A DNA stretch of 32,000 nucleotides, taken from assembly GCA_965224465.1 (NCBI GenBank), contig OZ245049.1, positions 690,001 through 722,000 of the forward strand, read 5' to 3'. Made by a program: the position numbers and the translations under genes. The notes below the pieces were generated by a model. That model saw only the letters and a program-made list of their open reading frames with translations. It was not told the origin of the DNA and ran no database searches. This DNA comes from Flavobacteriaceae bacterium (lineage in GTDB: Bacteria; Bacteroidota; Bacteroidia; Flavobacteriales; Flavobacteriaceae). Below are positions 4,703 to 28,086 of the stretch, one piece after another (position 1 is the first letter of the stretch; each line of letters begins with the position of its first letter).

Positions 4703-5476
4703 TTAAGAAACTTCATCTTTCAAAAAATCATAAGGTATTTCATAATTATCTAAAGGGTCAATAGGTAATATTTCTTTTGGAATAAGCGGAGAGTTAACTT
4801 CTACTTCTAAACCTTGCCTCCAAGCTAATTTTGCATAACCTAATGCAGGCTGAGAAACATATTTATTTAAAACTGCATTATCATTTCTCTTTTTATGAAT
4901 TTTAGGACTAACTAACTCCTCTAAAAGTTCCTCACATTTAGATTCATCTTTTGACAAAAGAGCTTTGTAAAATTCATAATCGATTTTTAACTCTTGTTGA
5001 TTCTTTGGTAATTTGGGCAGTGTTAAAGTTTCAATGATGTTTAGGTTTCTTTCTATTCCTTGAGTATCGTTAGCCATAAAAAACTGAATTGTATTACACC
5101 AAATAGCACTTTCGCCTTGCAATATCATTTCATCCATTGACAACTCTGAATTCTCACTTTTTTGATAGCGCAATTTTGAATACTGTTGAATTAATTGCTC
5201 GTTATCACTTAATATAGGATAACACACATTAGGTAATCCAAAATCGAATAATCTATCATTAAATTTATCTATTCTTAATTTATCTAAAAGAGTTGCATTA
5301 TAAAAATATTGCCTACTGTTTTCATTCATCATTAAAGAATAAATAGCAATATCGTATTCCATAAATCTAAAATTAAGAGCAACTTTATTCAGGTTAGATT
5401 TATCATTAATAACAAGACTTAACAATTTATCTTTTCGATTTAAAGCACGCTCTATCTTCTCCTTTAACTTTATCAT
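4703..5476 (-). CDS. Putative immunity protein for the upstream toxin (family not recognised)
   Basis: ORF track, 257 aa. ATG lies 2 nt after the toxin stop, which suggests translational coupling. No signal peptide visible. The call rests on position only. Confidence 0.5.
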   Translation of the reverse strand: MIKLKEKIERALNRKDKLLSLVINDKSNLNKVALNFRFMEYDIAIYSLMMNENSRQYFYNATLLDKLRIDKFNDRLFDFGLPNVCYPILSDNEQLIQQYSKLRYQKSENSELSMDEMILQGESAIWCNTIQFFMANDTQGIERNLNIIETLTLPKLPKNQQELKIDYEFYKALLSKDESKCEELLEELVSPKIHKKRNDNAVLNKYVSQPALGYAKLAWRQGLEVEVNSPLIPKEILPIDPLDNYEIPYDFLKDEVS

Positions 5477-5478
5477 AA

Positions 5479-6189
5479 TTAGAAGTTTGCTAATTTTATA
5501 AAATTAATCTCTCCAGTTGTCTTATCTACTACAGCAACATATTTCTGTATTGAACCATTAGATGCTGATATAATAGCATCAGCAGTTTGTTGTTTCAAAC
5601 CTCCAAGTCCGTCTAATTTATCTGTTGCAACATAATTTATCCAGTTATCACTCATTTGAGAAGGAAGACCTGTGTTTGTATTTGGTCCACTTAAAGATGC
5701 TGAACCACTTGAAGACATTTGTTTGCTTTCAATAATAATTATCTCTGAAGGGTTATCAATTCCACCTTTATAATATATACCATCATATCCATTGACACCA
5801 TTTGCTCCATAATATTTACCATCTGCTATTTGATATCCTTGTCCAGTCATAATATCATCTACTAATCCTTCTGTCTTAGCTCCTAAATTATCTCCATTTA
5901 CAATAATATCATCAACTACATTCTTTGCAGAACTTCCATTTGTTGGTGTTATCTTATAAGCATCATTCCAAAGTGTTTTTCCAATGTTAGTCTTATTTGC
6001 TCCTCCTGGTATTTTAGCTGTAATATTCTTAAATGATGAAAGACTAAACCAGTTACTCCCTGCGTTAGCCAATTCTTCAAGCCTTTCACTACTTTTTTCA
6101 ATTGAAAAAAAAGTGTCGTTTGCACTTAAATTGAGTGTCGAAAAAACACTAAGTACAACAATTAGGAATATTTTAAATAAGCTGTTCAC
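5479..6189 (-). CDS. Secreted polymorphic toxin, body type A (possible PD-(D/E)xK-like nuclease)
   Basis: ORF track, 236 aa with a GTG start. The leader NSLFKIFLIVVLSVFSTLNLSA|NDTFFSIEKSS..EELAN is shared with the other toxins. The body contains YDGIYY...IIIIESK, read by eye as D...ExK; the nuclease call is weak. Confidence 0.65.
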   Translation of the reverse strand: MNSLFKIFLIVVLSVFSTLNLSANDTFFSIEKSSERLEELANAGSNWFSLSSFKNITAKIPGGANKTNIGKTLWNDAYKITPTNGSSAKNVVDDIIVNGDNLGAKTEGLVDDIMTGQGYQIADGKYYGANGVNGYDGIYYKGGIDNPSEIIIIESKQMSSSGSASLSGPNTNTGLPSQMSDNWINYVATDKLDGLGGLKQQTADAIISASNGSIQKYVAVVDKTTGEINFIKLANF

Positions 6190-6764
6190 GGATTACAAAG
6201 ATAGTTGATTTCTTAGTTTTTGTTTTTCTTCAATTGAAAAAAAAATAAACACAAAGTTTAAGGCTTGATTTTTTGTAATTAATGCCTTATCGAAATTTTC
6301 ATTTTTTAGAATAATGCTCTATGGCATTGATTATAAAAAATGAGCATCCAAGGGGTTTGGGGAATGGAAGATTCCCCATATAAATAAATCCTGCGTAGCA
6401 GACCTATTATTTTTTTTGTGCGGTTGGGAGCGTTGGATGTGTGGCTATTTTGCATAATACCAGTTATAACTACCTGGAGTTTTTCACGCAAGAGTATTAT
6501 AACTTGTATTATGTTACTTAGCTTGGGGTGGTTTTTATGGCGGATTTTTTGCTTTTGTGCGGTGGCACAGCTCTTTGGATTTTCTTTTTTTCAATTGAAA
6601 ATAAAAACGATAAAAAAGAAAATACAATGTGCTGTTTTTGCGGTGGGTTGCAGAAAGTGTGACATAAAAACCACAGAAGGGTTGGCGTGCGGAACAACAT
6701 AAAGCACAAAGGCTTTTTGCTTTTTCTGCAAAAGTTTGGGTTTTATGTTGTGGGGATTGGTCGG
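6065..6764 (-). repeat. Leader + junction region, allele A
   Basis: Conserved between all module boundaries. T-run-CAATTG-A-run palindromes at 6093-6112 (inside the leader CDS), 6229-6238 and 6590-6599. GGGGAAT-GGAAG-ATTCCCC hairpin at 6359-6377. (G)TGCGGT(T)GG repeats at 6418-6427, 6557-6565 and 6639-6646. Confidence 0.8.
6453..6513. repeat. 17-bp inverted repeat (CATAATACCAGTTATAA / TTATAACTTGTATTATG) with a 27-nt loop
   Basis: Arms at 6453-6469 and 6497-6513, complementary at 16 of 17 positions. The loop sequence is unrelated to the other copies and lacks the CAATTG palindrome. Confidence 0.75.
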
Positions 6765-7043
6765 TTATTTCTCTCCATAATGAGAATGTGCATTTAGTAC
6801 ATAAACTGTAACTATTTCTTCATTTATAGAATACACTAATCGGTGTTTATGGTTGATTCTTCTTGAATACAATCCTTTTAAATTATGTTTCAACATTTCG
6901 GGTTGTCCTGTTCCTGTTGTTGGGTGTTCCATTAATTCAGTTAATAATTTCTGTAACTTCTTTAAAATTGATTTATCTCCTACTTTTTTATGTTTCTCAA
7001 TATCTTCTAAAGCGGTTTTAGAAAATTCTAATTTATAACTCAT
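6765..7043 (-). CDS. yoeB: YoeB/Txe-family toxin (RelE superfamily mRNA interferase)
   Basis: ORF track, 92 aa. GQPEMLKHNLKGLYSRRINHKHRLVYSI closely resembles E. coli YoeB [28 protein letters not shown]. It overlaps the antitoxin stop by 4 nt. Confidence 0.88.
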   Translation of the reverse strand: MSYKLEFSKTALEDIEKHKKVGDKSILKKLQKLLTELMEHPTTGTGQPEMLKHNLKGLYSRRINHKHRLVYSINEEIVTVYVLNAHSHYGEK

Positions 7044-7291
7044 AAACCTAATAATTCACTTATTTCTTTAGGTGTAGAAATGGTTTTTGTTTCTCCATTT
7101 TGAACTTCTAAAACGCTTTGTTGAATACGTTCTATCATCTTTGCATTAAAGTACATATCGTTCTCACTAACAAGAGTTAATGCATACGATTTATCTTTCC
7201 CCCTTTGAACAATTATATACTCTCCTTTATCTACTCTTTCGAAGTATTCTTTTTGATTTTGTCTAAATTCTCTACTGCTTATAACTAACAT
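7040..7291 (-). CDS. Phd/YefM-family antitoxin
   Basis: ORF 7040-7354 trimmed to the internal ATG at 7291 (MLVISSREFRQNQKEYFERV...), which resembles the YefM N-terminus (ISYSEARQNL). The upstream 21 codons overlap a palindromic operator-like site and look non-coding. Confidence 0.75.
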   Translation of the reverse strand: MLVISSREFRQNQKEYFERVDKGEYIIVQRGKDKSYALTLVSENDMYFNAKMIERIQQSVLEVQNGETKTISTPKEISELLGL

Positions 7292-7306
7292 AATATCATA
7301 TTTTGT

Positions 7307-7321
7307 GTACCAATATGGTAC
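7307..7321. promoter_or_regulatory. Perfect palindrome GTACCA-ATA-TGGTAC upstream of the antitoxin gene (candidate YefM/YoeB operator)
   Basis: 6-bp arms with a 3-bp spacer, 16 nt upstream of ATG 7291. Type II TA operons are typically autoregulated at such palindromes. Confidence 0.55.
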
Positions 7322-7354
7322 AATATACAAATAAATAAGCAAAAAGTATTCCAT

Positions 7355-8296
7355 TTACCCTAAAGGATGAAACATTTCTATTTGTTTACTCAAATTCTTC
7401 ATGTCTTTATTACGGTACTTTTCTATATTTCCAACATTTTTATAACCGCTTAAATATTGGGTTTTTCTTAATCCAAATAAATCTATCCAAATGCCTATTC
7501 TTGATTGTTTGAGTTGAGTTAATCTTTTAATGTTTATTGTTGGATTCTGCTCCTTTATGGTTTTTACTAATACTTTTAATTGCTCGTGTAAGCGTTGTTC
7601 TTTGTTGCAGTTTGGATTGAACAGTTTTTCGCTTTGCTCTGTATTTGGCTTGTTGTTTCTACCTATCCCTCTAAAATCGGTAATATAATCGTGAAAAGGA
7701 ATTATCTGATTTGCTTCTAATTTTACTGTTCTGCTGTTCTTTCTTCTTACTCCTCCTGGGACTTTTATGATTCCTTTTTTTAGATCTAAATCTTCTAATT
7801 CTAAATTCATTAAATCTTGCTTGTCCAATGCTTGAAAAATCATTAACCCCAATAGTAGTTTATTGCTGTATTTAAAATATCCGTGTTTAGTTTTGTCTTG
7901 ATAATTGGTGTAGATTTCTTGTAGTTCTTCTTCTGTTAATAAAATGATTTGCTCTTGTGCTACTCCTCTTAATCTTACATTTAAAGCAATGTTTTGTATT
8001 GCTTCTGTTGAGCTATTTAAAAGACGCTGTGCGTCTAAAAAGTGGTAATAATGTTCTATTGCTCTTAAAGTTGTATTGATACTTGTTTTTGATTTCTCTT
8101 GATTTTGTAAGTGTCCTATATAGTTTAATAACTGATTGTATTTTATCGTTTTCACGGTTAGTTTATTTAGCTGTAACCAAATTGTAAAAAGTCCTATTCT
8201 CATTATAAAATCCTTGATACATTTTTCGCTATAAAACCTATCTGTTAGCCATTTATCAAAGGCGAGAGGCTCGCTACCCAATTTATTATTTTTCAT
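7355..8296 (-). CDS. Second, divergent tyrosine-recombinase-like protein (313-aa type)
   Basis: ORF track. SAM-like N-terminal region (TSINTTLRAIEHYYHFL). The C-terminal region aligns by eye to the first recombinase, but the Arg-I position reads D (QALDKQDL), GH is GY, and the terminal Tyr is kept (NIEKY). Confidence 0.8.
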   Translation of the reverse strand: MKNNKLGSEPLAFDKWLTDRFYSEKCIKDFIMRIGLFTIWLQLNKLTVKTIKYNQLLNYIGHLQNQEKSKTSINTTLRAIEHYYHFLDAQRLLNSSTEAIQNIALNVRLRGVAQEQIILLTEEELQEIYTNYQDKTKHGYFKYSNKLLLGLMIFQALDKQDLMNLELEDLDLKKGIIKVPGGVRRKNSRTVKLEANQIIPFHDYITDFRGIGRNNKPNTEQSEKLFNPNCNKEQRLHEQLKVLVKTIKEQNPTINIKRLTQLKQSRIGIWIDLFGLRKTQYLSGYKNVGNIEKYRNKDMKNLSKQIEMFHPLG

Positions 8297-9149
8297 CCTG
8301 TATTAATTGGCTGTCTGCCTCAGACTCTTCAAGTATGTGCGTATAAATCTGTGTACTATCTAACCTTTTATGTCCTAAAAAATTACCAATATATTCTAAC
8401 TCCATTCCTTGCTGTAAAAGATGTGTAGCAATGCTATGACGTAAACTGTGCAGGCTCGCCTGTTTTGTTATCTCTGATTTCTTCATCAAAACTTTTAACC
8501 TGTTGTTTAAATATTGTCCTGTTACTTGTGGTTTTGATTTTCCAACTAATAAATAGTTACTTTCTGTATTGATTATCTCCCTTGCAAACTCAACATATTC
8601 TTTTAAATCTGCTATTACTTTTTGAGACATTGGAACATATCTACTTTGATAATTCTTACTTGGTTTTACATAAATTAATCCTTTGTTAAAGTCTAATTCT
8701 TTTGGCTCTAAATTAATTCCCTCTTTACTTCTTAATCCGCAACCGTAGTAAATACTTAGTATTGCTTTATCAAAAAGCCCTAAGGGCTTATTTTCATCTA
8801 CAGCCTTGAATAAGGCTTGTATTTCTGATTGGCTAAAAATGGTTCTTTGGGTTCTGATTTCCTTTTCTACTATGATTTTACCTGTTACTAATTTTTGCTT
8901 TTTGGTGAGTTCTAAAAACTTACTGTACCTGTTTATTACATTAATATAACCTTGTATTGATTGTCTTGCTAATTTAGTTTGATGTAGGTCTTTTATGAAG
9001 TTTTCTATCTCTTGTTGATTAGGCTTTCTTTGATTTAAATACTTGAAAAAATTAGCTAATAACCTGACATATCCTTTGATGGTGCTTTCTGCATAACCCA
9101 ATCTAATTAACCACAGCTTGAAGCTGTTCAATTCATTTTCTTTCTCCAT
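8286..9149 (-). CDS. Tyrosine recombinase/integrase, module 2
   Basis: ORF track, 287 aa, with the same R...HxxR...H...Y motifs as 717-1574. Its 3' part is identical to 717-992 in the tract compared. Confidence 0.9.
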   Translation of the reverse strand: MEKENELNSFKLWLIRLGYAESTIKGYVRLLANFFKYLNQRKPNQQEIENFIKDLHQTKLARQSIQGYINVINRYSKFLELTKKQKLVTGKIIVEKEIRTQRTIFSQSEIQALFKAVDENKPLGLFDKAILSIYYGCGLRSKEGINLEPKELDFNKGLIYVKPSKNYQSRYVPMSQKVIADLKEYVEFAREIINTESNYLLVGKSKPQVTGQYLNNRLKVLMKKSEITKQASLHSLRHSIATHLLQQGMELEYIGNFLGHKRLDSTQIYTHILEESEADSQLIQDEK

Positions 9150-9165
9150 TTTTAAATATTTGGGT

Positions 9166-9180
9166 GTCGAGCCTCTCGAC
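9166..9180 (-). other. Hairpin GTCGAG-CCT-CTCGAC between the primase stop and the recombinase start
   Basis: Perfect 6-bp stem, about 17 nt upstream of the recombinase ATG (9149) on the minus strand. Confidence 0.5.
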
Positions 9181-9246
9181 TAGGGGGTGCCTTGCATTTT
9201 GGGATTTTACTGGGCTACCTCAGTAACTTGTTGATAGTCTTTTAGT

Positions 9247-11796
9247 TTAGTTGCCCACTAACTCAACTGGGTCACTGTGGTTTACTGGTTCACTCATTAT
9301 TGCTTTTATATCTTCCAAAGCCTTATCTAATGCGGACTCTATACAGTTTTTTAAGTTTTCGTATTCTTCTGTATTCAGTAATTCATATTCGTAACCTCTT
9401 GCTTTATTACCTCCAATTACACTTAAATATCCGTATCTGTTCAAATCTGATAAATACCTATTTAATGTGGTTGGTGCAAAACGATATGCCTTTCTAATTT
9501 CTTTGCTATAAAAACTCTTTTTTTGATGTTTGGATAGATATGTTTTAAGTAACTCCAAAAAATCCCTACACGCTTTTGTTAACTCATCACTTTTCGCCAG
9601 CAGTACCGTTTTTAACAGCTTATTGGCTTGTTCTATATCTTCTAAAGTCGTTTCTATATAATAGTTTCCTTGTTCGTCTTTTTTACGTTCTCGTTGATAC
9701 TGATGGTAAAAAGTAACGGTTTCTATAAATGCCAAATAATGGGTATTTGTTCTCAAGGGTTTAAAAACTGTTTCGGGAATATTGAGCATTGTAGCATAAG
9801 GATTTACAACTTTTACTTTTTCTAATAACCATTGCACATCTTTTAAAAATTCCCTGGCGTTATTCTCTTCTTGCTTGTTAATCTTTCCTGCTGAACTATT
9901 TTGTTGATAGCTCATAATCCCTTCTTTTTGTTGTTTGCTGTTATCTAAATAAATGAGCAAACTTCTATTAGCATTATCTTCATAAATCTTTTCTTTGGTG
10001 GTTGTTCCGGCTAAACAAATTGGGCCTTCTACTGTTAAGGTGATTGTTTTTAGGTTTCCTTTAGCATCTTTTATAGGAATGGTTTTACTTATTTTTCGTT
10101 TACTCATTAATTCACGGATAGCATACAAAATCTTATCATCTTGTGCTCCGTCCAAGTCCTCAATTAGAACTAATTTATTTTTGAGTTCTGTTCTATCAAA
10201 GTAGTAAAGTGCATTTTCTGATAGTGCTGTAATTTCTAATTTATGTTCTTCTGGTATGAGGTCTGATATTTTTTCTTGTAGGTAGGTTTTCCCTGTTCCA
10301 CTTGCTCCAAGGCTTATAATGTGTAGCGGTTGTTCTCTTAATCTGCTCGTAAAAACCAAATACATTAACAAACGATTATTAACCTCTCCAACCATTCCAG
10401 TTTTACCAATTAAGTCGTTTGTGTTTTGTAGTAAATTTTCTCCTTTTAAGAATTCAATTGCTTTTTGTTTTCTTAGTTCCGTGAGTTCTCTTAATTTCTT
10501 TTTCTGTGGTTTTTGTGCATCTACTTGTCTTAATCTGTAATCTTCTAATCCGTTTATGAGTTCTGCTATTGCGTATTGTATTTCTCTTGTTCCTAATTCT
10601 AATCTTTCGGCTACTTTCCTTGTAAATTTCTCGGTTGAATCATCATTGTATAAATCTAAATTACTTTGTCTGATGTTATATATTGGACTTGGGTTATCTG
10701 TTCTTGTGATGCGTAGGGTTACTTTTAACTTGTCTAAACTGAACAAGTTTACCCCTCCTAAAACGGCTATTAAAATGTTGTTGTTTTGGTAAGTGATGTA
10801 ATCTTGGTTTTCTGTGTTCAGCTCGTTACTTACTGGTTCTGCCTGCTCTGCTACAAATTCAGTTTCCGAACCATATAAATTTACTCTTTCGCTTATTAGA
10901 TGCTCTAAAATACTTGGCTCGTGTGATTGTACCAGACTATTTATATCTTCTCCTTGCGGACAATTAATTTTACTGATGCTTAGATTGTTAAATAGTTGAT
11001 TTAATGTTTTAGAATGTTCTTGTATTGCTTTTTCTCCTGCTTCATCTCCATCAAAAAAGAGTATCACTTCTTTTAAATTCTCTATTCTTTTAAGTGCTTC
11101 TAAATGCTCATTGGTTAGCCCATTTGTTCCGTAAAGTGCAAGTGTTTCAAAGTTGGTGTATTTCTGAAGTGTAACACTATCAATTATACTTTCTGTAAGG
11201 ACTATTACTTGCGTTTCTTTGTTTGGATATTTGGGATAAAGCCCTTTTCTGTTTGCTGTATAGTAGTGCGTTCCTGTTTTTGCTATATTTCTACCGTACA
11301 GACTTACTATTTCGTTTTGCTCATTTTTTAGAGGATAGATAATACAGTTTTTTAAGTTCTTATAAATTCCTCCAGAGTTATAGCCTTGTTCTAATTTCAC
11401 ATCATAAATCCCTCTTTCTTCTAAATAGGCGATTGCTTTTTTACTTCTATGTAGGCTTTGTTTGAATTTTGGGAATAATTCGGTAAAGTTTATAGCCTCC
11501 TGTATTTCTGTTGTTGTTTTGAGTGGTTTTATTTCTGCAGTACCAATTAACTCTTTTGCCTTTTTGATTGCTTGGTGTTTTGTACAGTTCTCTATTTCTT
11601 GTATAAACTGTATTGCATCTCCTGTTTTATCACAACCAAAGCAAGTGTAGGTGTTTGTATTTGGGTAAATTCTTAAACTGGGTTTATTGTCTTTATGGAA
11701 TGGGCATTTTGCGTGGTTGTTATTATTTACGCTTATGTTGTACTCATTTAGTACTGTTTCTATGCTTAATTGCTCTTTAATTTGCTTGATTTCCAT
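9247..11796 (-). CDS. Primase-helicase-like replication protein (tail type 2)
   Basis: ORF track, 849 aa, with CHC2 finger, TOPRIM and Walker A/B as in 1651-4191. The C-terminal ~150 aa differ (..QRERKKDEQGNYYIETT..RYGYLSVIGGNKARGYEYELL..). Confidence 0.9.
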   Translation of the reverse strand: MEIKQIKEQLSIETVLNEYNISVNNNNHAKCPFHKDNKPSLRIYPNTNTYTCFGCDKTGDAIQFIQEIENCTKHQAIKKAKELIGTAEIKPLKTTTEIQEAINFTELFPKFKQSLHRSKKAIAYLEERGIYDVKLEQGYNSGGIYKNLKNCIIYPLKNEQNEIVSLYGRNIAKTGTHYYTANRKGLYPKYPNKETQVIVLTESIIDSVTLQKYTNFETLALYGTNGLTNEHLEALKRIENLKEVILFFDGDEAGEKAIQEHSKTLNQLFNNLSISKINCPQGEDINSLVQSHEPSILEHLISERVNLYGSETEFVAEQAEPVSNELNTENQDYITYQNNNILIAVLGGVNLFSLDKLKVTLRITRTDNPSPIYNIRQSNLDLYNDDSTEKFTRKVAERLELGTREIQYAIAELINGLEDYRLRQVDAQKPQKKKLRELTELRKQKAIEFLKGENLLQNTNDLIGKTGMVGEVNNRLLMYLVFTSRLREQPLHIISLGASGTGKTYLQEKISDLIPEEHKLEITALSENALYYFDRTELKNKLVLIEDLDGAQDDKILYAIRELMSKRKISKTIPIKDAKGNLKTITLTVEGPICLAGTTTKEKIYEDNANRSLLIYLDNSKQQKEGIMSYQQNSSAGKINKQEENNAREFLKDVQWLLEKVKVVNPYATMLNIPETVFKPLRTNTHYLAFIETVTFYHQYQRERKKDEQGNYYIETTLEDIEQANKLLKTVLLAKSDELTKACRDFLELLKTYLSKHQKKSFYSKEIRKAYRFAPTTLNRYLSDLNRYGYLSVIGGNKARGYEYELLNTEEYENLKNCIESALDKALEDIKAIMSEPVNHSDPVELVGN

Positions 11797-11843
11797 CTTT
11801 ATTTGAAATTGTTTAAAAAAAGTTGTTTGTTACACTTTGGCTA

Positions 11844-11851
11844 CAAAAGTA
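11844..11851 (-). promoter_or_regulatory. Candidate -7 box (TACTTTTG on the minus strand) for the primase operon
   Basis: Matches TAnnTTTG, about 47 nt upstream of the primase ATG (11796). Confidence 0.4.
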
Positions 11852-11908
11852 AACAAACAGTAATTAAAAACCAAAACTTTTGGATTTGTTTTTACTCAAA
11901 CTATGCTA

Positions 11909-11916
11909 TATATTTG
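11909..11916 (+). promoter_or_regulatory. Candidate -7 box (TATATTTG) for the XRE-SUKH operon
   Basis: Matches TAnnTTTG, 36 nt upstream of ATG 11953. Confidence 0.45.
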
Positions 11917-11952
11917 CAGAAACCATTACAGAATGGCAACAAACAGCATATT

Positions 11953-12300
11953 ATGAGTACAGATTTTGGAAAAAGATTAAAAACAGTAAGAGAAGAGAAA
12001 GGTTTGAAACGTGAGGATATTGCGAAAAAAATAGGAACATCTTCTGCAATTATAGGGCGTTATGAACGTAACGAAAGAACTCCAAATATTGATATTGCTA
12101 AAAATATTGCAGAAGCTCTTGAAGTAAGTCTTGATTATTTAGTGGGTGATACTACAGTATTATTGAAAGACAAGAAAATGCTTTACCGTTTAGAAATTTT
12201 ACAGAAAGTTAGTAGTAGCCAAAAAGATAGGATTTTATATATGTTTGATTTGATGCTCAAAGATGCTCAAAATAATTCTTTGCAAGAGAAATTAGCTTAA
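11953..12300 (+). CDS. XRE/Cro-C1-type HTH regulator
   Basis: ORF 11770-12300 trimmed to ATG 11953 (MSTDFGKRLKTVREEKGLKREDIAKKIGTSSAIIGRYERNER). The longer ORF would overlap the primase start and the promoter region. A TAnnTTTG box lies at 11909-11916. Confidence 0.8.
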   Translation: MSTDFGKRLKTVREEKGLKREDIAKKIGTSSAIIGRYERNERTPNIDIAKNIAEALEVSLDYLVGDTTVLLKDKKMLYRLEILQKVSSSQKDRILYMFDLMLKDAQNNSLQEKLA

Positions 12301-12307
12301 AATTGAT

Positions 12308-12757
12308 ATGGAAAATATATTTGGAAACTTTGATTTAGTACCCGATAATGAAAAAGGGTACATTGAAGAATTGGAAAAGGAATACGGTATTTCACTACCT
12401 CCAATATTTAAAGTATTTTGTCAAACTTTTGTTTTAAACTCTCTTAAGCCAAATGAAAACCACCATATATTTTATCCTGATGAAGAGTTAGGCTTTGATG
12501 GTTTTGAATTTAACCTAAAAGAATTATTAGGATACTATCAAGAAGTAGGGGAACCTCATTCTCAAAGAAAAATGATTCCAATAGCGACTTCATCTCTACA
12601 TTCTGGTGGGATATGTATTTGCTATGACAATCAGAATAAAGATAAAATCTACGTAAATGATGAAATGTCAGATGATGATTTTACACAAGTAGCTACTGAT
12701 ATTCTCGATTTTATCTCGCAAATAGGACAGTTTAATTTTTCAAATAACAATTCTTAA
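12308..12757 (+). CDS. SUKH-1 (SMI1/KNR4-like) immunity protein
   Basis: ORF track, 149 aa. The N-terminus (IEELEKEYGISLPPIFKVFCQTF) is typical of SMI1/KNR4-SUKH immunity proteins. It lies 7 nt after the XRE stop and is convergent with the WHH-type toxin. Confidence 0.7.
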   Translation: MENIFGNFDLVPDNEKGYIEELEKEYGISLPPIFKVFCQTFVLNSLKPNENHHIFYPDEELGFDGFEFNLKELLGYYQEVGEPHSQRKMIPIATSSLHSGGICICYDNQNKDKIYVNDEMSDDDFTQVATDILDFISQIGQFNFSNNNS

Positions 12758-13563
12758 AACCCCATAAATTCAAATAAATCTTGTAACCCTTTTGAAATTA
12801 TTGATTTACCTCCTGAATGATTAAACCCTTTAGGTACACTATGTATAGATGTCTTAACAGGAAATAAAGTTCTCCCATCTTCAAAATGATGCCAAGTATA
12901 TGTCTCCCAATTACCATTCTCAAATAATTGAAATTGCTTTGACATTCCACCTGAATTGGTTTGTGCAATTCTAAAGTTCCCATTAGTCATATAGCCATTA
13001 TTCCAAGGCCAATTACCGCCTGATTTTTCAATCCCAAATTTCTTTGCTAAAGCCGTATTTGCTTGAGTAAAATCCGTTCCTGCACCTGTTAGATTTGGTG
13101 ATTCAAATTTAAACTTGCTTGCAGTTGTTCCATCAGTAAAATTGAGAATGGGTGAATTAGAACGTAAATCCGGCATTCCTTTTTTATAGGTTACAGAAAC
13201 ACTTTGCCCATCAATAACTTTTGTAACAGTATAATCCATCTGACCACCATAACCTTGTGGATGTTTGAGTGTTTTATAGTGATTATCTAATTGTTGAAGT
13301 TTTACGTCAGTAAGATTATCTAATTTAGCCAAGAAAGAAGCATCAGCAACATCATCTAAGCTGTTCACAAAGTTTTTAGCAAAACTTAAATCCCCTAAAG
13401 CATCAAGTTTTGTAATAATTTTAGATTTCCCCACCGTATTAGCCAATTCTTCAACACTATTACTACTTTTTTCAGTTGAAAAAAAAGTATCGTTTGCACT
13501 TAAATTTAGTGTCGAAAAAACACTAAGTACAACTAATAGGAATATTTTAAATTGATTACTCAC
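12754..13563 (-). CDS. Secreted polymorphic toxin, body type B (WHH-type HNH/EndoVII-fold nuclease)
   Basis: The ORF track gives 12754-13572 with a TTG start. I prefer GTG at 13563, which aligns with the GTG start of 5479-6189. Shared leader. The C-terminus TYTWHHFEDGRTLFPVKTSIHSVPKGFNHSGG fits the WHH clade of HNH/EndoVII toxins, which commonly pair with SUKH immunity proteins. Confidence 0.75.
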   Translation of the reverse strand: MSNQFKIFLLVVLSVFSTLNLSANDTFFSTEKSSNSVEELANTVGKSKIITKLDALGDLSFAKNFVNSLDDVADASFLAKLDNLTDVKLQQLDNHYKTLKHPQGYGGQMDYTVTKVIDGQSVSVTYKKGMPDLRSNSPILNFTDGTTASKFKFESPNLTGAGTDFTQANTALAKKFGIEKSGGNWPWNNGYMTNGNFRIAQTNSGGMSKQFQLFENGNWETYTWHHFEDGRTLFPVKTSIHSVPKGFNHSGGKSIISKGLQDLFEFMGF

Positions 13564-14153
13564 AGATGACAAAGGTAACAGTTTTCTTAGTTTTTCTTTT
13601 TCTTCAATTGAAAAAAAAACTAAGGCTTGATTTTTTTATAATTATTGCCTTGTCGAAATGTTGATTTTAAAACTAATGTTCTTGGCAATGATTATGAAAA
13701 AATGAGCATCCAAAGGGGTTTGGGGAATGGAAGATTCCCCATATAAATAAATCCTGCGTAGCAGACCTATTTTTTTAGTGTGTCGGCAAGTGTGGTGGAT
13801 GTGTGGCTATTTTGCATAATACCAGTTATAATGACATTTTTTTCAATTGAAAAGAAAATAATCAACTCGAAAAATGTGCGAAGCGAACTTATAACTTGTA
13901 TTATGTAACTTAGCTTGGGGTTTAATTTTTTGGCATTGCTTTTTGTTCTGTGCGGTGGGGTAGCTGTTTGGTGTTGGCTTTTTTTATTTTCAAAAAAAAC
14001 AATAACAAAGTGCTACTTGTGGAATGGCTTACAAAAACTATGACAAAAAATTAAACAGAAGGGATGGCGAGCGGAACAAAAGGAAACACAAAGGCTTTTT
14101 GCTTTTTCTGCAAAAATTTGGGTTTACTTTTGTGGGGATTTGTGCGGTGGATT
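13439..14153 (-). repeat. Leader + junction region, allele B
   Basis: Palindromes at 13467-13486 (CAGTTG variant, inside the CDS), 13603-13612 and 13842-13851. A degenerate T-run/A-run relic lies at about 13979-13999. Hairpin at 13722-13740. GTGCGGTGG at 13950-13958 and 14142-14150. Confidence 0.8.
13815..13905. repeat. Same 17-bp inverted repeat with a 57-nt loop containing a CAATTG palindrome
   Basis: Arms at 13815-13831 and 13889-13905. Confidence 0.75.
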
Positions 14154-19129: not shown

Positions 19130-19570
19130 TTAAGATAATTCGTTAAAGGAATTTTCATCTATAATAGTTTTTCCATCAACAAGAAGTAGCGCATTCAAAT
19201 GATTTGCCATTTTAAAAAAAATGTTTAAATCTTCTAATTTAGGAGTTCGTTCAAAATTTATACTTATCCAATTATTCCTTGAACTAAATCCTACATTAAT
19301 ATCATAATACCCTTTTTTGTCATTAAACTCAGCATAACAACTAACCTTATTTAAACTACCTAAAACACGCTCTCTGAAACCTTCTGGAACATTATCTATA
19401 TCCTTTAGTATTTCTATGCCATCTTTAGTATTTTCTTTCCAAATAAACTCACTCAAATGACTCTCAACAAAATCTACCCATTTTTCATAGTTTAAGGGTA
19501 ATGACTGAGTAAATACATCATCAATTGTGTTTATTGCTATTCTTAAATCTGTATTTCGGCTTAGTTTCAT
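19130..19570 (-). CDS. Putative immunity protein (family not recognised)
   Basis: ORF track, 146 aa. Its ATG overlaps the toxin stop by 1 nt (TAATG). No signal peptide visible. The call rests on position. Confidence 0.55.
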   Translation of the reverse strand: MKLSRNTDLRIAINTIDDVFTQSLPLNYEKWVDFVESHLSEFIWKENTKDGIEILKDIDNVPEGFRERVLGSLNKVSCYAEFNDKKGYYDINVGFSSRNNWISINFERTPKLEDLNIFFKMANHLNALLLVDGKTIIDENSFNELS

Positions 19571-20226
19571 TAGTTTATAAAATCTTCAAGTGCTTTAATT
19601 TCAAAAGTTATATCAGGATCAACTGTATTAAGTTTATTCATCCATTCCGTTTTCAATGTTGGCGTTATACTGGCTTTAGGCATATAGACATCAATTTTAG
19701 CATTTGTAATAAACATTGTTTTCCCATTGCTCACGAGACCTGTTGAAGGGTCTAGACCTTCTTTTAGAAATTTAATATTTTTCTGCATTGGTGCTGACGC
19801 TAACCAAGTATCAACATTTGTTGAAATAGTCGTTTTCATAGAAACAGCTGTATTTGCAAAAATTTGATTTGCTGTTTCTGTCCCTTTGTAAAAATCGATT
19901 CCTTTAAAGTTAAATGATATATCTCCTGTATGAAGCCACCCAGATGATTTAGTGTAACGATATTGTCCCATTACATCTTCAAAGAAACTTCTACCACCTA
20001 ACATATCAGGTATAGGATATTTCGTTTTCCAAATATCGTCTATGTGTTTAAGCTTATCAGATAAGGACTTGCTAATGAAGCCAGCCAAATCATCCACCGA
20101 GTTAGCCAATTCTTCAACACTATTACTACTTTTTTCAGTTGAAAAAAAAGTATCGTTTGCACTTAAATTTAGTGTCGAAAAAACACTAAGTACAACTAAT
20201 AGGAATATTTTAAATTGATTACTCAC
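19570..20226 (-). CDS. Secreted polymorphic toxin, body type C (possible PD-(D/E)xK-like nuclease)
   Basis: The ORF track gives 19570-20235 (TTG). GTG at 20226 is preferred by alignment with the paralogues. Shared leader. The body has GGRSFFEDV...GIDFY...AVSMKT, read by eye as E...D...SxK; the nuclease call is weak. Confidence 0.65.
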   Translation of the reverse strand: MSNQFKIFLLVVLSVFSTLNLSANDTFFSTEKSSNSVEELANSVDDLAGFISKSLSDKLKHIDDIWKTKYPIPDMLGGRSFFEDVMGQYRYTKSSGWLHTGDISFNFKGIDFYKGTETANQIFANTAVSMKTTISTNVDTWLASAPMQKNIKFLKEGLDPSTGLVSNGKTMFITNAKIDVYMPKASITPTLKTEWMNKLNTVDPDITFEIKALEDFIN

Positions 20227-25792: not shown

Positions 25793-26233
25793 TTAAGATA
25801 ATTCGTTAAAGGAATTTTCATCTATAATAGTTTTTCCATCAACAAGAAGTAGCGCATTCAAATGATTTGCCATTTTAAAAAAAATGTTTAAATCTTCTAA
25901 TTTAGGAGTTCGTTCAAAATTTATACTTATCCAATTATTCCTTGAACTAAATCCTACATTAATATCATAATACCCTTTTTTGTCATTAAACTCAGCATAA
26001 CAACTAACCTTATTTAAACTACCTAAAACACGCTCTCTGAAACCTTCTGGAACATTATCTATATCCTTTAGTATTTCTATGCCATCTTTAGTATTTTCTT
26101 TCCAAATAAACTCACTCAAATGACTCTCAACAAAATCTACCCATTTTTCATAGTTTAAGGGTAATGACTGAGTAAATACATCATCAATTGTGTTTATTGC
26201 TATTCTTAAATCTGTATTTCGGCTTAGTTTCAT
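25793..26233 (-). CDS. Putative immunity protein (duplicate)
   Basis: Translation identical to 19130-19570. Confidence 0.55.
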   Translation of the reverse strand: MKLSRNTDLRIAINTIDDVFTQSLPLNYEKWVDFVESHLSEFIWKENTKDGIEILKDIDNVPEGFRERVLGSLNKVSCYAEFNDKKGYYDINVGFSSRNNWISINFERTPKLEDLNIFFKMANHLNALLLVDGKTIIDENSFNELS

Positions 26234-26889
26234 TAGTTTATAAAATCTTCAAGTGCTTTAATTTCAAAAGTTATATCAGGATCAACTGTATTAAGTTTAT
26301 TCATCCATTCCGTTTTCAATGTTGGCGTTATACTGGCTTTAGGCATATAGACATCAATTTTAGCATTTGTAATAAACATTGTTTTCCCATTGCTCACGAG
26401 ACCTGTTGAAGGGTCTAGACCTTCTTTTAGAAATTTAATATTTTTCTGCATTGGTGCTGACGCTAACCAAGTATCAACATTTGTTGAAATAGTCGTTTTC
26501 ATAGAAACAGCTGTATTTGCAAAAATTTGATTTGCTGTTTCTGTCCCTTTGTAAAAATCGATTCCTTTAAAGTTAAATGATATATCTCCTGTATGAAGCC
26601 ACCCAGATGATTTAGTGTAACGATATTGTCCCATTACATCTTCAAAGAAACTTCTACCACCTAACATATCAGGTATAGGATATTTCGTTTTCCAAATATC
26701 GTCTATGTGTTTAAGCTTATCAGATAAGGACTTGCTAATGAAGCCAGCCAAATCATCCACCGTATTAGCCAATTCGTCAACACTATCACTACTTTTTTCA
26801 ATTGAAAAAAAAGTGTCGTTTGCACTCAAATTTAGTGTCGAAAAAACACTAAGTACAACTAATAGAAATATTTTAAATTGATTACTCAC
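26233..26889 (-). CDS. Secreted polymorphic toxin, body type C behind a different leader allele
   Basis: The body is identical to 19570-20226 up to ..VDDLAGF. The leader differs (FFSIEKSSDSVDELANT vs FFSTEKSSNSVEELANS). ORF-track entry 26233-27027 is trimmed to the conserved GTG at 26889. Confidence 0.65.
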   Translation of the reverse strand: MSNQFKIFLLVVLSVFSTLNLSANDTFFSIEKSSDSVDELANTVDDLAGFISKSLSDKLKHIDDIWKTKYPIPDMLGGRSFFEDVMGQYRYTKSSGWLHTGDISFNFKGIDFYKGTETANQIFANTAVSMKTTISTNVDTWLASAPMQKNIKFLKEGLDPSTGLVSNGKTMFITNAKIDVYMPKASITPTLKTEWMNKLNTVDPDITFEIKALEDFIN

Positions 26890-27496: not shown

Positions 27497-27775
27497 TTAT
27501 TTCTCTCCATAATGAGAATGTGCATTTAGTACATAAACTGTAACTATTTCTTCATTTATAGAATACACTAATCGGTGTTTATGGTTGATTCTTCTTGAAT
27601 ACAATCCTTTTAAATTATGTTTCAACATTTCGGGTTGTCCTGTTCCTGTTGTTGGGTGTTCCATTAATTCAGTTAATAATTTCTGTAACTTCTTTAAAAT
27701 TGATTTATCTCCTACTTTTTTATGTTTCTCAATATCTTCTAAAGCGGTTTTAGAAAATTCTAATTTATAACTCAT
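27497..27775 (-). CDS. yoeB: YoeB/Txe-family toxin (second copy)
   Basis: Translation identical to 6765-7043 (offset 20732). Confidence 0.88.
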   Translation of the reverse strand: MSYKLEFSKTALEDIEKHKKVGDKSILKKLQKLLTELMEHPTTGTGQPEMLKHNLKGLYSRRINHKHRLVYSINEEIVTVYVLNAHSHYGEK

Positions 27776-28023
27776 AAACCTAATAATTCACTTATTTCTT
27801 TAGGTGTAGAAATGGTTTTTGTTTCTCCATTTTGAACTTCTAAAACGCTTTGTTGAATACGTTCTATCATCTTTGCATTAAAGTACATATCGTTCTCACT
27901 AACAAGAGTTAATGCATACGATTTATCTTTCCCCCTTTGAACAATTATATACTCTCCTTTATCTACTCTTTCGAAGTATTCTTTTTGATTTTGTCTAAAT
28001 TCTCTACTGCTTATAACTAACAT
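27772..28023 (-). CDS. Phd/YefM-family antitoxin (second copy)
   Basis: Identical to 7040-7291. Trimmed to the internal ATG in the same way. Confidence 0.75.
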   Translation of the reverse strand: MLVISSREFRQNQKEYFERVDKGEYIIVQRGKDKSYALTLVSENDMYFNAKMIERIQQSVLEVQNGETKTISTPKEISELLGL

Positions 28024-28038
28024 AATATCATATTTTGT

Positions 28039-28053
28039 GTACCAATATGGTAC
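28039..28053. promoter_or_regulatory. Same palindrome, second copy
   Basis: Offset 20732 from 7307-7321. Confidence 0.55.
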
Positions 28054-28086
28054 AATATACAAATAAATAAGCAAAAAGTATTCCAT

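Follow-up and report, generated by a model that had tools for sequence, protein, structure and literature searches.

Polymorphic toxins of the Rhs, CdiA and MafB types show C-terminal displacement and are accompanied by orphan arrays of C-terminal toxin (CT) and immunity genes. Tycheposons and P4-like satellites combine a recombinase and primase-helicase core with variable cargo and stack in tandem at one attachment site. We analysed a locus of a Flavobacteriaceae bacterium (assembly GCA_965224465.1, contig OZ245049.1) in which features of both are found together. The window, i.e. the whole stretch of 32,000 nucleotides (nt) that was analysed, corresponds to positions 690001-722000 of a single 5.24-Mb contig, the genome being 99.99% complete. 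It contains four small toxin genes, called leader-toxins here, each of which encodes a short Sec-type leader followed by a nuclease-like body. We consider it probable that these small proteins are displaced or stored tips (the variable C-terminal toxin parts) of a giant toxin, kept with their immunity genes and fused to a leader borne by an integrative element.

Like tycheposons and P4-like satellites, the element has a recombinase and primase-helicase core, variable cargo and a tandem arrangement. Unlike in those systems, the attachment site would lie in frame inside a toxin gene and not in a tRNA gene, and the cargo would complete the target gene. A tRNA attachment site was ruled out, the array region being devoid of tRNA. 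The likeness to Rhs, CdiA and MafB toxins, for which Zhang et al. 2012 (PMC3482391) is in part the source, lies in a constant delivery part that meets a variable C-terminal toxin at a short conserved motif, in the adjacent cognate immunity gene, in older tips kept downstream of the full-length gene and in the occurrence of one tip on different carriers. The differences are that the stored tips are here separated by a complete integrative and replicative element, that each of them comes with a start codon, a promoter-like box and a Sec-type signal of its own, and that a common junction of about 8-17 nt indicates site-specific rather than homologous exchange. Sec-only 'T2SS' (type II secretion system) toxins such as MAFB-N, Microscilla-N and APD1/APD2 of Amoebophilus (PMC3482391) likewise have a signal peptide and a short constant N-terminus in front of extremely polymorphic C-termini. 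In the present locus, however, the constant part is about 44 amino acids (aa) long and has no globular domain, its coding sequence belongs to the mobile element instead of a chromosomal gene family, and its junction is common with that of a giant carrier.

By tblastn and motif scans, the window proved to be part of a 66-kb array of nine tandem units of 6.7-8.0 kb (genome 680934-747173), which are bounded by ten in-frame LAN/LAE junctions. Each unit carries a primase-helicase, an XerD-like recombinase, a second recombinase-like gene and a helix-turn-helix (HTH) gene, to which Phd/YoeB or a YhcG nuclease may be added. The recombinase labelled recB matched the XerD/XerA models with an E-value of 5e-49 and carries the motifs LRHS...LGH...Y. 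Six tip types, each with a partner gene, are distributed over the array, and the type of HTH gene co-varies with the cargo tip, as an element model predicts. One complete element, from junction to junction, lies in the window together with the leader of its neighbour:

6065..13446, minus strand: the complete element, with body B, SUKH, HTH, primase, two recombinases, Phd/YoeB, non-coding region and leader
6765-7354: Phd/YoeB, followed by a conserved non-coding region of about 570 nt between Phd/YoeB and the leader
7355-8296: second recombinase-like gene
8286-9149: XerD-like recombinase
9247-11796: primase-helicase
11959..12300, plus strand: Xre-type HTH_3 regulator (Pfam HTH_3, 1.3e-15), divergent from the primase gene
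12308..12757, plus strand: SUKH (SMI1/KNR4) immunity protein for toxin B, assigned by Pfam and convergent layout
12754..13563, minus strand: leader-toxin B, with GTG start, 23-aa Sec-like signal, linker to LAN, N-terminal subdomain of about 175 aa and WHH HNH/EndoVII nuclease
13439..13446, minus strand: junction core TTGGCTAA (Leu-Ala-Asn codons) at the boundary of leader and body B, proposed crossover site; equivalent cores lie at 6065-6072, 20102-20109 and 26765-26772
13447..13563, minus strand: element-borne leader, belonging to the neighbouring element with body C cargo

The proposed crossover point could be read at the two ends of the array. The upstream end lies in the 3' part of a 1827-aa open reading frame (ORF) with a Sec signal, fn3 domains, an HExxH motif and an AHH tip (tip E). 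Over its last 756 nt this giant is identical to the next leader-toxin, with TTGGCTAA as the exact starting point of the identity; upstream of this point the two sequences are unrelated. Downstream, the array closes with a 173-aa leader-toxin and its 111-aa partner; beyond them lie a group II intron and insertion sequence (IS) remnants, but no element genes. The identity starting at TTGGCTAA and the element-free downstream end are the pattern expected from recombination at LAN. Giant and leader share about 8-17 nt at the junction, which is too little for ordinary homologous recombination and points to site-specific exchange, presumably by the element's own recombinase.

The same bodies were found on large proteins elsewhere. 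A second paralogue of the giant, broken up by an IS, has a terminal WHH tip that shows 64% identity to B and is joined at the same motif (LADKVG); next to it lies a convergent SUKH gene whose product is 46% identical and which shows the same 4-nt overlap (L004 8048-9285). Body B itself occurs behind five different N-terminal parts, with an LA-x-x-VG-type join in four of them. An exhaustive search with body C returned 106 relatives, and every full-length match sits at the C-terminus of its protein. Among these relatives are proteins of 999-1868 aa, four of which (1263, 1557, 1677 and 1868 aa) share the fn3 architecture of the giant and three of these four also its Sec-signal N-terminus; further carriers are a 1836-aa DUF6443 protein and one relative in which the body follows a PT-HINT domain. 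The giant and its relatives have their own Sec signal, with cleavage before Gln. A Sec signal is atypical for type VI secretion system (T6SS) cargo. As the 99.99%-complete genome contains no T6SS sheath gene (VipB/TssC, PF05943), delivery of the tips as T6SS cargo was ruled out.

The first-pass annotation of this DNA had seen toxins without a large carrier, the delivery of which was unexplained. This view was not supported: a carrier exists in the 1827-aa Sec-signal giant, a B-like tip is present on its paralogue and body C on proteins of 999-1868 aa. With these carriers the puzzle of the missing carrier largely dissolves. Sec-only export of polymorphic toxins is, moreover, already listed as a 'T2SS' class (Zhang et al. 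2012, PMC3482391). The related proposal that the toxins are the variable cargo of an element holds in that the cargo rides on an element; it does not cover the exchange of this cargo with a host toxin gene, which the in-frame junction points to.

The surroundings of the giant and its paralogues showed further features. The genes upstream of the giant encode a 460-aa PKD protein and a 1251-aa SprB-repeat protein with a C-terminal sorting domain of the type IX secretion system (T9SS) (L003:12821-17958, genome 752821-757958). The first two genes of this neighbourhood are syntenic in Aquimarina sp. (L007 2-2701). The PKD and SprB-repeat proteins may be part of a surface or delivery apparatus for the giant. 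Behind the IS-broken paralogue lies a classical orphan array without primase or recombinase genes (L004:3147-7277, genome 643147-647277), in which each unit consists of a 163-aa SUKH protein, a 'type-2' signal-peptide leader of about 95 aa with its tip, joined at the same LA[NE]xVD motif, and an immunity gene; one of the tip types is an Endonuclea_NS_2 nuclease. In the stretch L001:5307-9524 (genome 675307-679524), the downstream end of the array adjoins a reverse transcriptase of a group II intron, which is broken by an IS, and then an IS4-like transposase; an Imm11/Imm43 gene and a 1381-aa giant paralogue with a different tip (...IIIENK) come next. The giant was not present in any of four incomplete genomes of the same genus that were compared for an empty site.

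The leader follows the pattern M..FKIFL[IL]VVLSVFSTLNLSA|ND..FFS[IT]EKSS..[VL][ED]ELAN over about 44 aa and is common to all four toxins in the window and to nine in the genome. Upstream of it, about 570 nt of non-coding DNA are common to the four aligned junction regions in the window. Its similarity breaks off sharply after GAATTGGCTAA (...ELAN), which agrees with the earlier observation that a Sec-like leader and linker are the sole part common to the small toxins. The same leader was found in public metagenome proteins, fused to SHH, Fic, ART (ADP-ribosyltransferase), AHH, colicin-DNase and unassigned bodies, far more than chance would provide. A lysine at position 6, an 11-aa core (IFLIVVLSVFS) with a mean Kyte-Doolittle hydropathy of 3.0 and the sequence NLSA|ND, with Ala at -1 and Leu at -3, characterise the leader, which contains neither a Cys, as in a lipoprotein signal, nor an RR, as in a Tat signal. 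Judged from these sequence features, it is a Sec-like signal peptide for signal peptidase I, and the leader forms would be exported and cleaved. A TAnnTTTG box is present in all four units, with its end 6 nt upstream of the GTG start. We take this box to be the Bacteroidetes -7 promoter element; its position suggests that it may drive a nearly leaderless transcript.

Two sequence features close to the junction deserve mention. The four bases directly 3' of TTGGCTAA (13435-13438, 20098-20101 and 26761-26764) read TACG or CTCG, independently of either flank; this variant is only a hint of what may be a strand-exchange overlap region. A palindrome of a T-run, CAATTG and an A-run occurs four times per junction region (e.g. 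6093-6112 and 13467-13486), once within the leader codons for TFFS[IT]EK, and the same box was seen in Chitinophagaceae relatives (L017, L025 and L033), where it is read as FFLSIEKKK or FSIENKK. As a crossover site the palindrome was rejected: identity breaks off at TTGGCTAA, about 30 nt further downstream, and no palindrome of this kind lies near the junction in the giant gene.

The toxin and immunity genes of the complete element form a recognisable pair. The frame of toxin B extends over 12754-13572 on the minus strand, and its start is most likely the GTG at 13563, which is also the start in the public gene call P0001. Counted from this GTG, the protein has 269 aa: the leader MSNQFKIFLLVVLSVFSTLNLSA|NDTFFSTEKSSNSVEELAN, then a body of 227 aa. 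Residues ~225-261 in the 272-aa frame matched Pfam WHH (PF14414) with E 2.1e-7 and 31 bits (cut-off 25.1), and the body alone gave this match as well. The C-terminus also resembles the C-terminal toxins of solved Rhs proteins (8bd1_A, 3e-6; 8h8a_B, 1.5e-4). Residues W182, H183, H184, H199 and H207-x-G209 (H207-S-G209) are invariant across toxin B homologues (n=7) and were aligned with the Rhs toxin 8bd1_A. They correspond to the Tox-WHH pattern WHH, H, HxG tabulated by Zhang et al. 2012 (PMC3482391), where SUKH is among the immunity families given for Tox-WHH. The ORF at 12308-12757 on the plus strand matched SUKH_6 (3.6e-10; 40.8 bits, cut-off 27) and SMI1_KNR4 (2.6e-9; 38.2 bits, cut-off 25.4). 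Both the WHH-type HNH/EndoVII signature of body B and the SUKH (SMI1/KNR4) nature of its neighbour, as called at first pass, were thus borne out, and the domain assignments support a genuine polymorphic toxin/immunity pair with predicted DNase activity and neutralisation. Body B shares the WHH, H, HxG motif, the SUKH immunity protein and the C-terminal position of the domain with Tox-WHH/Imm-SUKH pairs of Rhs proteins (8bd1, 8h8a), but differs from them by its family-specific N-terminal subdomain of about 175 aa ahead of WHH and by its convergent immunity gene, which is co-transcribed with an HTH regulator.

This layout bears on the earlier suggestion that each body is translationally coupled to its partner. 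It applies to toxin A with Imm49 and to toxin C with its partner (see below), but not to B and SUKH, the genes of which are convergent on opposite strands with stop codons overlapping by 4 nt. The SUKH start lies 7 nt 3' of the stop of the HTH gene at 11959-12300 on the plus strand, and from this arrangement SUKH is read as co-transcribed with the HTH gene and not translationally coupled to toxin B.

Domain identities, the anatomy of the array, the exact junction and the presence of the tips on giant carriers together led us to the following scheme. A cassette of tip, immunity and HTH genes would ride on an integrative, self-replicating element of about 7 kb that encodes the XerD-like recombinase, the second recombinase-like protein and the primase-helicase. 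As a circle with the order leader-LAN-tipX-immX-HTH-primase-recombinases, this element would recombine in frame at TTGGCTAA with the giant gene. Integration would fuse the element's tip to the giant, which thereby receives tipX, and the previous tip would be joined to the element's leader of about 44 codons with its promoter-like -7 box, GTG and Sec-type signal. Repeated integration would yield nine elements and nine parked leader-tips, which would presumably not be delivered to targets in this form, and the immunity genes would be kept expressed through coupling to the leader-toxin or through the HTH operon. More tentatively, and with rather low probability, the leader may be a purpose-built parking device whose exported tips might also be reused as a multi-warhead arsenal. 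For parking, the promoter, start and Sec signal of the leader would maintain the expression of every displaced tip along with its immunity gene and would carry excess nuclease out of the cytoplasm, and the cell would remain immune to the toxins of its kin while taking up a new one. As an arsenal rather than an archive, the exported leader-tips would be loaded in trans onto the giant or an SprB-like surface apparatus, or into vesicles.

Several observations weigh against the displaced-tip scheme. The second recombinase-like protein matches XerD weakly. The mosaic make-up of the elements and the three cargo pairs duplicated at 100% identity mean that homologous recombination and duplication also shape the array, and in a tandem array a crossover point is readable only at the two array ends. 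When the codons of the leader were compared with those of five diverged copies, 2-8 synonymous vs 11-24 non-synonymous changes were counted; leader conservation therefore appears to be largely at the DNA level, and selection on the peptide is not proven by this comparison. Finally, signal-peptide character is kept in a 43%-identical leader variant (L007), in the unrelated 'type-2' leader of about 95 aa (MNFL...GAQTTYA|KT) and in a third leader (P0038). This hints at a real export function, in which case the leader forms may be active products and not merely parked ones. The main rival explanation is that the leader-toxins are autonomous Sec-exported bacteriocin-like effectors, perhaps carried in outer-membrane vesicles, and that the fusion to a giant is incidental. 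This would be partly compatible with displaced tips and would suit the intact ORFs, each with a cognate immunity gene, the TAnnTTTG box that each of the four units has 6 nt ahead of its GTG, the signal-peptide character kept in the three variant leaders and the fact that Zhang et al. 2012 (PMC3482391) list Sec-only ('T2SS') polymorphic toxins in which the constant N-terminus is small. Nevertheless, the bodies of 170-230 aa stand behind 44 aa with no receptor-binding or outer-membrane translocation part, no unit contains a lysis or release gene, and the same bodies tip carriers of 1000-1900 aa. The displaced-tip leader of the Rhs-targeting relatives (MGCxKL..), moreover, has no signal peptide, and a periplasmic nuclease would find no substrate there. 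We therefore regard autonomous effectors as unlikely. A soluble bacteriocin of the colicin or pyocin type was rejected, as neither receptor-binding and translocation domains nor a lysis gene are found.

The presence of Phd/YoeB on the elements raises the question whether the toxin/immunity pairs themselves are intracellular addiction modules, similar to toxin-antitoxin (TA) systems, that stabilise the elements instead of serving as interbacterial weapons. Orphan Rhs toxin/immunity pairs are reported to act as type II TA modules in Salmonella (PMC7043789). A signal peptide would, however, remove the toxin from the cytoplasm, where its target lies, a classical TA pair or a YhcG nuclease is already present on the elements, and the tips belong to families found on exported carriers; addiction modules are quite improbable on these grounds. 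An even smaller probability is given to an ordinary orphan array made by homologous recombination and duplication, with the primase and recombinase genes as unrelated passengers, or to mis-assembly. Mosaic backbones and three pairs of 100%-identical adjacent units would fit such an origin, as would the many related metagenome contigs of unit length (7-8 kb), as for collapsed repeats. Against it stand the order tip, immunity, HTH, primase, two recombinases and leader, which recurs across several Bacteroidota families and always behind a toxin gene, the junction of about 8-17 nt shared by giant and leader, and the assembly of the genome into a single 5.24-Mb contig at 99.99% completeness.

The two remaining cargo types of the window, bodies A and C, had both been guessed to be of restriction-endonuclease fold. 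The corresponding genes are:

4703..5476, minus strand: Imm49 immunity protein for toxin A (Pfam Imm49, E 1.7e-24), translationally coupled
5479..6189, minus strand: leader-toxin A, putative PD-(D/E)xK nuclease of PoNe / Tox-REase-1/6 type, assigned by motifs, AlphaFold2 (AF2) model and profile
19130..19570, minus strand: 146-aa partner of toxin C, presumed immunity protein; copy at 25793-26233
19570..20226, minus strand: leader-toxin C, PD-(D/E)xK-like core; identical copy at 26233-26889

Toxin A is coupled to Imm49 by a TAA, 2 nt and an ATG. Body A had no Pfam match even at E 10 and no NCBIfam match; in an alignment of its homologues (n=11), E62, D91, E109-x-K111 and Q133 are invariant. In the AF2 model (predicted local distance difference test, pLDDT, 93.9) these residues of the catalytic pattern map to the canonical PD-(D/E)xK helix and strands, at helix 56-71, strands 92-98 and 101-112 and just ahead of helix 136-147. 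The family profile matched the PoNe DNase domain of VP14465, a T6SS effector from Vibrio (9waq_B), with an E-value of 0.0017, the GxxE, GxDG, ExK and QMSDxW motifs being aligned between the two. Foldseek returned weak matches to nucleases of the restriction-endonuclease fold (MspJI as the best, E 0.06, lambda exonuclease and SPARDA); such weak to moderate Foldseek matches of bodies A and C were used only jointly with the motif positions. Zhang et al. 2012 (PMC3482391) pair Imm49 with Tox-REase-1 and Tox-REase-6, which are characterised by 'E, D, ExK, Q'. From signature, partner and the profile match to 9waq_B, the restriction-endonuclease fold of body A is well supported by sequence and model. 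Body A resembles PoNe DNases (Jana et al. 2019, PMC6688995; VP14465 9waq, PMC13377157), with which it aligns at GxxE, G[YI]DG, ExK and QMSDxW, and Tox-REase-1/-6 by its E, D, ExK, Q pattern. Unlike PoNe effectors it is not covered by a Pfam model, its partner is Imm49 and not a DUF1911-type PoNi, and its carrier is not a T6SS MIX effector.

In toxin C the stop codon overlaps the start of the partner gene (TAATG). Pfam and NCBIfam searches gave no family match even at E 10, neither for body C nor for its partner. The AF2 model of body C (pLDDT 93.1) had its best Foldseek match in the CdiA-CT 4zqu_A (E 3.3e-3, prob 0.99, template modelling (TM) scores 0.40/0.52), ahead of the CdiA-CT 4g6u_A (E 2e-2), with Shedu, Mus81 and its XPF-type relatives ranking next. 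Of the invariant residues, E38 is on helix 1, D66 on strand 2 and S84-x-K86 on strand 3, the third motif being SxK. A PD-(D/E)xK-like core, and with it the restriction-endonuclease-fold reading, is moderately supported for body C by motif and model. With the CdiA-CT of Yersinia pseudotuberculosis YPIII (4zqu) and E. coli TA271 (4g6u), body C has in common, according to its model, the alpha-beta-beta-beta-alpha-beta core with the conserved E, D and xK; TM-scores of 0.40-0.52, an identity of 14-16%, the S-x-K third motif and a partner without detectable family set it apart. Among the other tips of the array, bodies D and F and the partners of D and F gave no Pfam or NCBIfam match even at E 10; for body D, a marginal CDI_toxin_EC869_like match (E 0.15) was noted.

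Related elements are spread widely in Bacteroidota. A scan with the primase pattern returned 69 related loci, almost all of them from Bacteroidota apart from a few bins of metagenome-assembled genomes (MAGs) labelled otherwise, and they span Flavobacteriaceae, Chitinophagaceae, Cytophagales, Crocinitomicaceae and others. Where the flanks were long enough, in at least five loci from at least five other genera, the element lies directly behind an Rhs-like toxin of 1439-1979 aa. Past the recombinases of these Rhs-associated elements, a short ORF repeats the last ~100 aa of the Rhs core (YYPFGL...DPxG) and continues into a different tip, followed by an immunity gene. The displaced Rhs tips begin with MGCxKL... 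and have no signal peptide, which marks the Sec leader as specific to the flavobacterial subfamily.

WHH/SUKH, Imm49, PoNe-like and CdiA-CT-like nucleases are known kinds, and Sec-only toxins with short N-termini are a listed class. What appears to be new is an integrative and replicative element that would target a toxin gene in frame, where its delivery part meets its tip, and would give the displaced tip a leader; a full-text literature search found no description of such elements. New tips of polymorphic toxins have so far mostly been ascribed to homologous recombination with orphan cassettes. In the present array even an ordinary WHH/SUKH pair rides on a self-replicating integrative element that is apparently aimed at this boundary of delivery part and tip. 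If this is true, it would be a dedicated mobile vehicle for the exchange of weapon and antidote across Bacteroidota, for fn3-type giants and Rhs toxins alike. It would also explain tandem toxin arrays in Bacteroidota genomes, and the two recombinases with their site of ~17 nt would offer an experimental handle. In addition, two nuclease tip families without Pfam models are added, namely body A, PoNe-like with an Imm49 partner, and body C, CdiA-CT-like with a new partner.

Some variation was seen in the elements and leaders outside the constant core. Between the second recombinase and the leader lies a slot for accessory cargo, which contains either Phd/YoeB (window 6765-7354 and 27497-28086) or a 343-aa YhcG/DUF1016 PD-(D/E)xK nuclease (L002:2676-3707 and 10230-11261), and in L005 and L007 the accessory slot is occupied by a 172-aa ORF without assigned family. 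Many of the related elements (L005, L006, L008, L012, L013, L016, L020 and L026) lie on metagenome contigs of 7-8.3 kb, i.e. about one unit, as is expected for collapsed tandem repeats or free circular copies. In a flavobacterial MAG (P0002, P0029, locus L069), a Gly/Ile-rich hydrophobic segment of about 130 aa is inserted between the leader and an LAE/VLVES junction, after which a B or C body follows; these proteins may be carriers of intermediate size.

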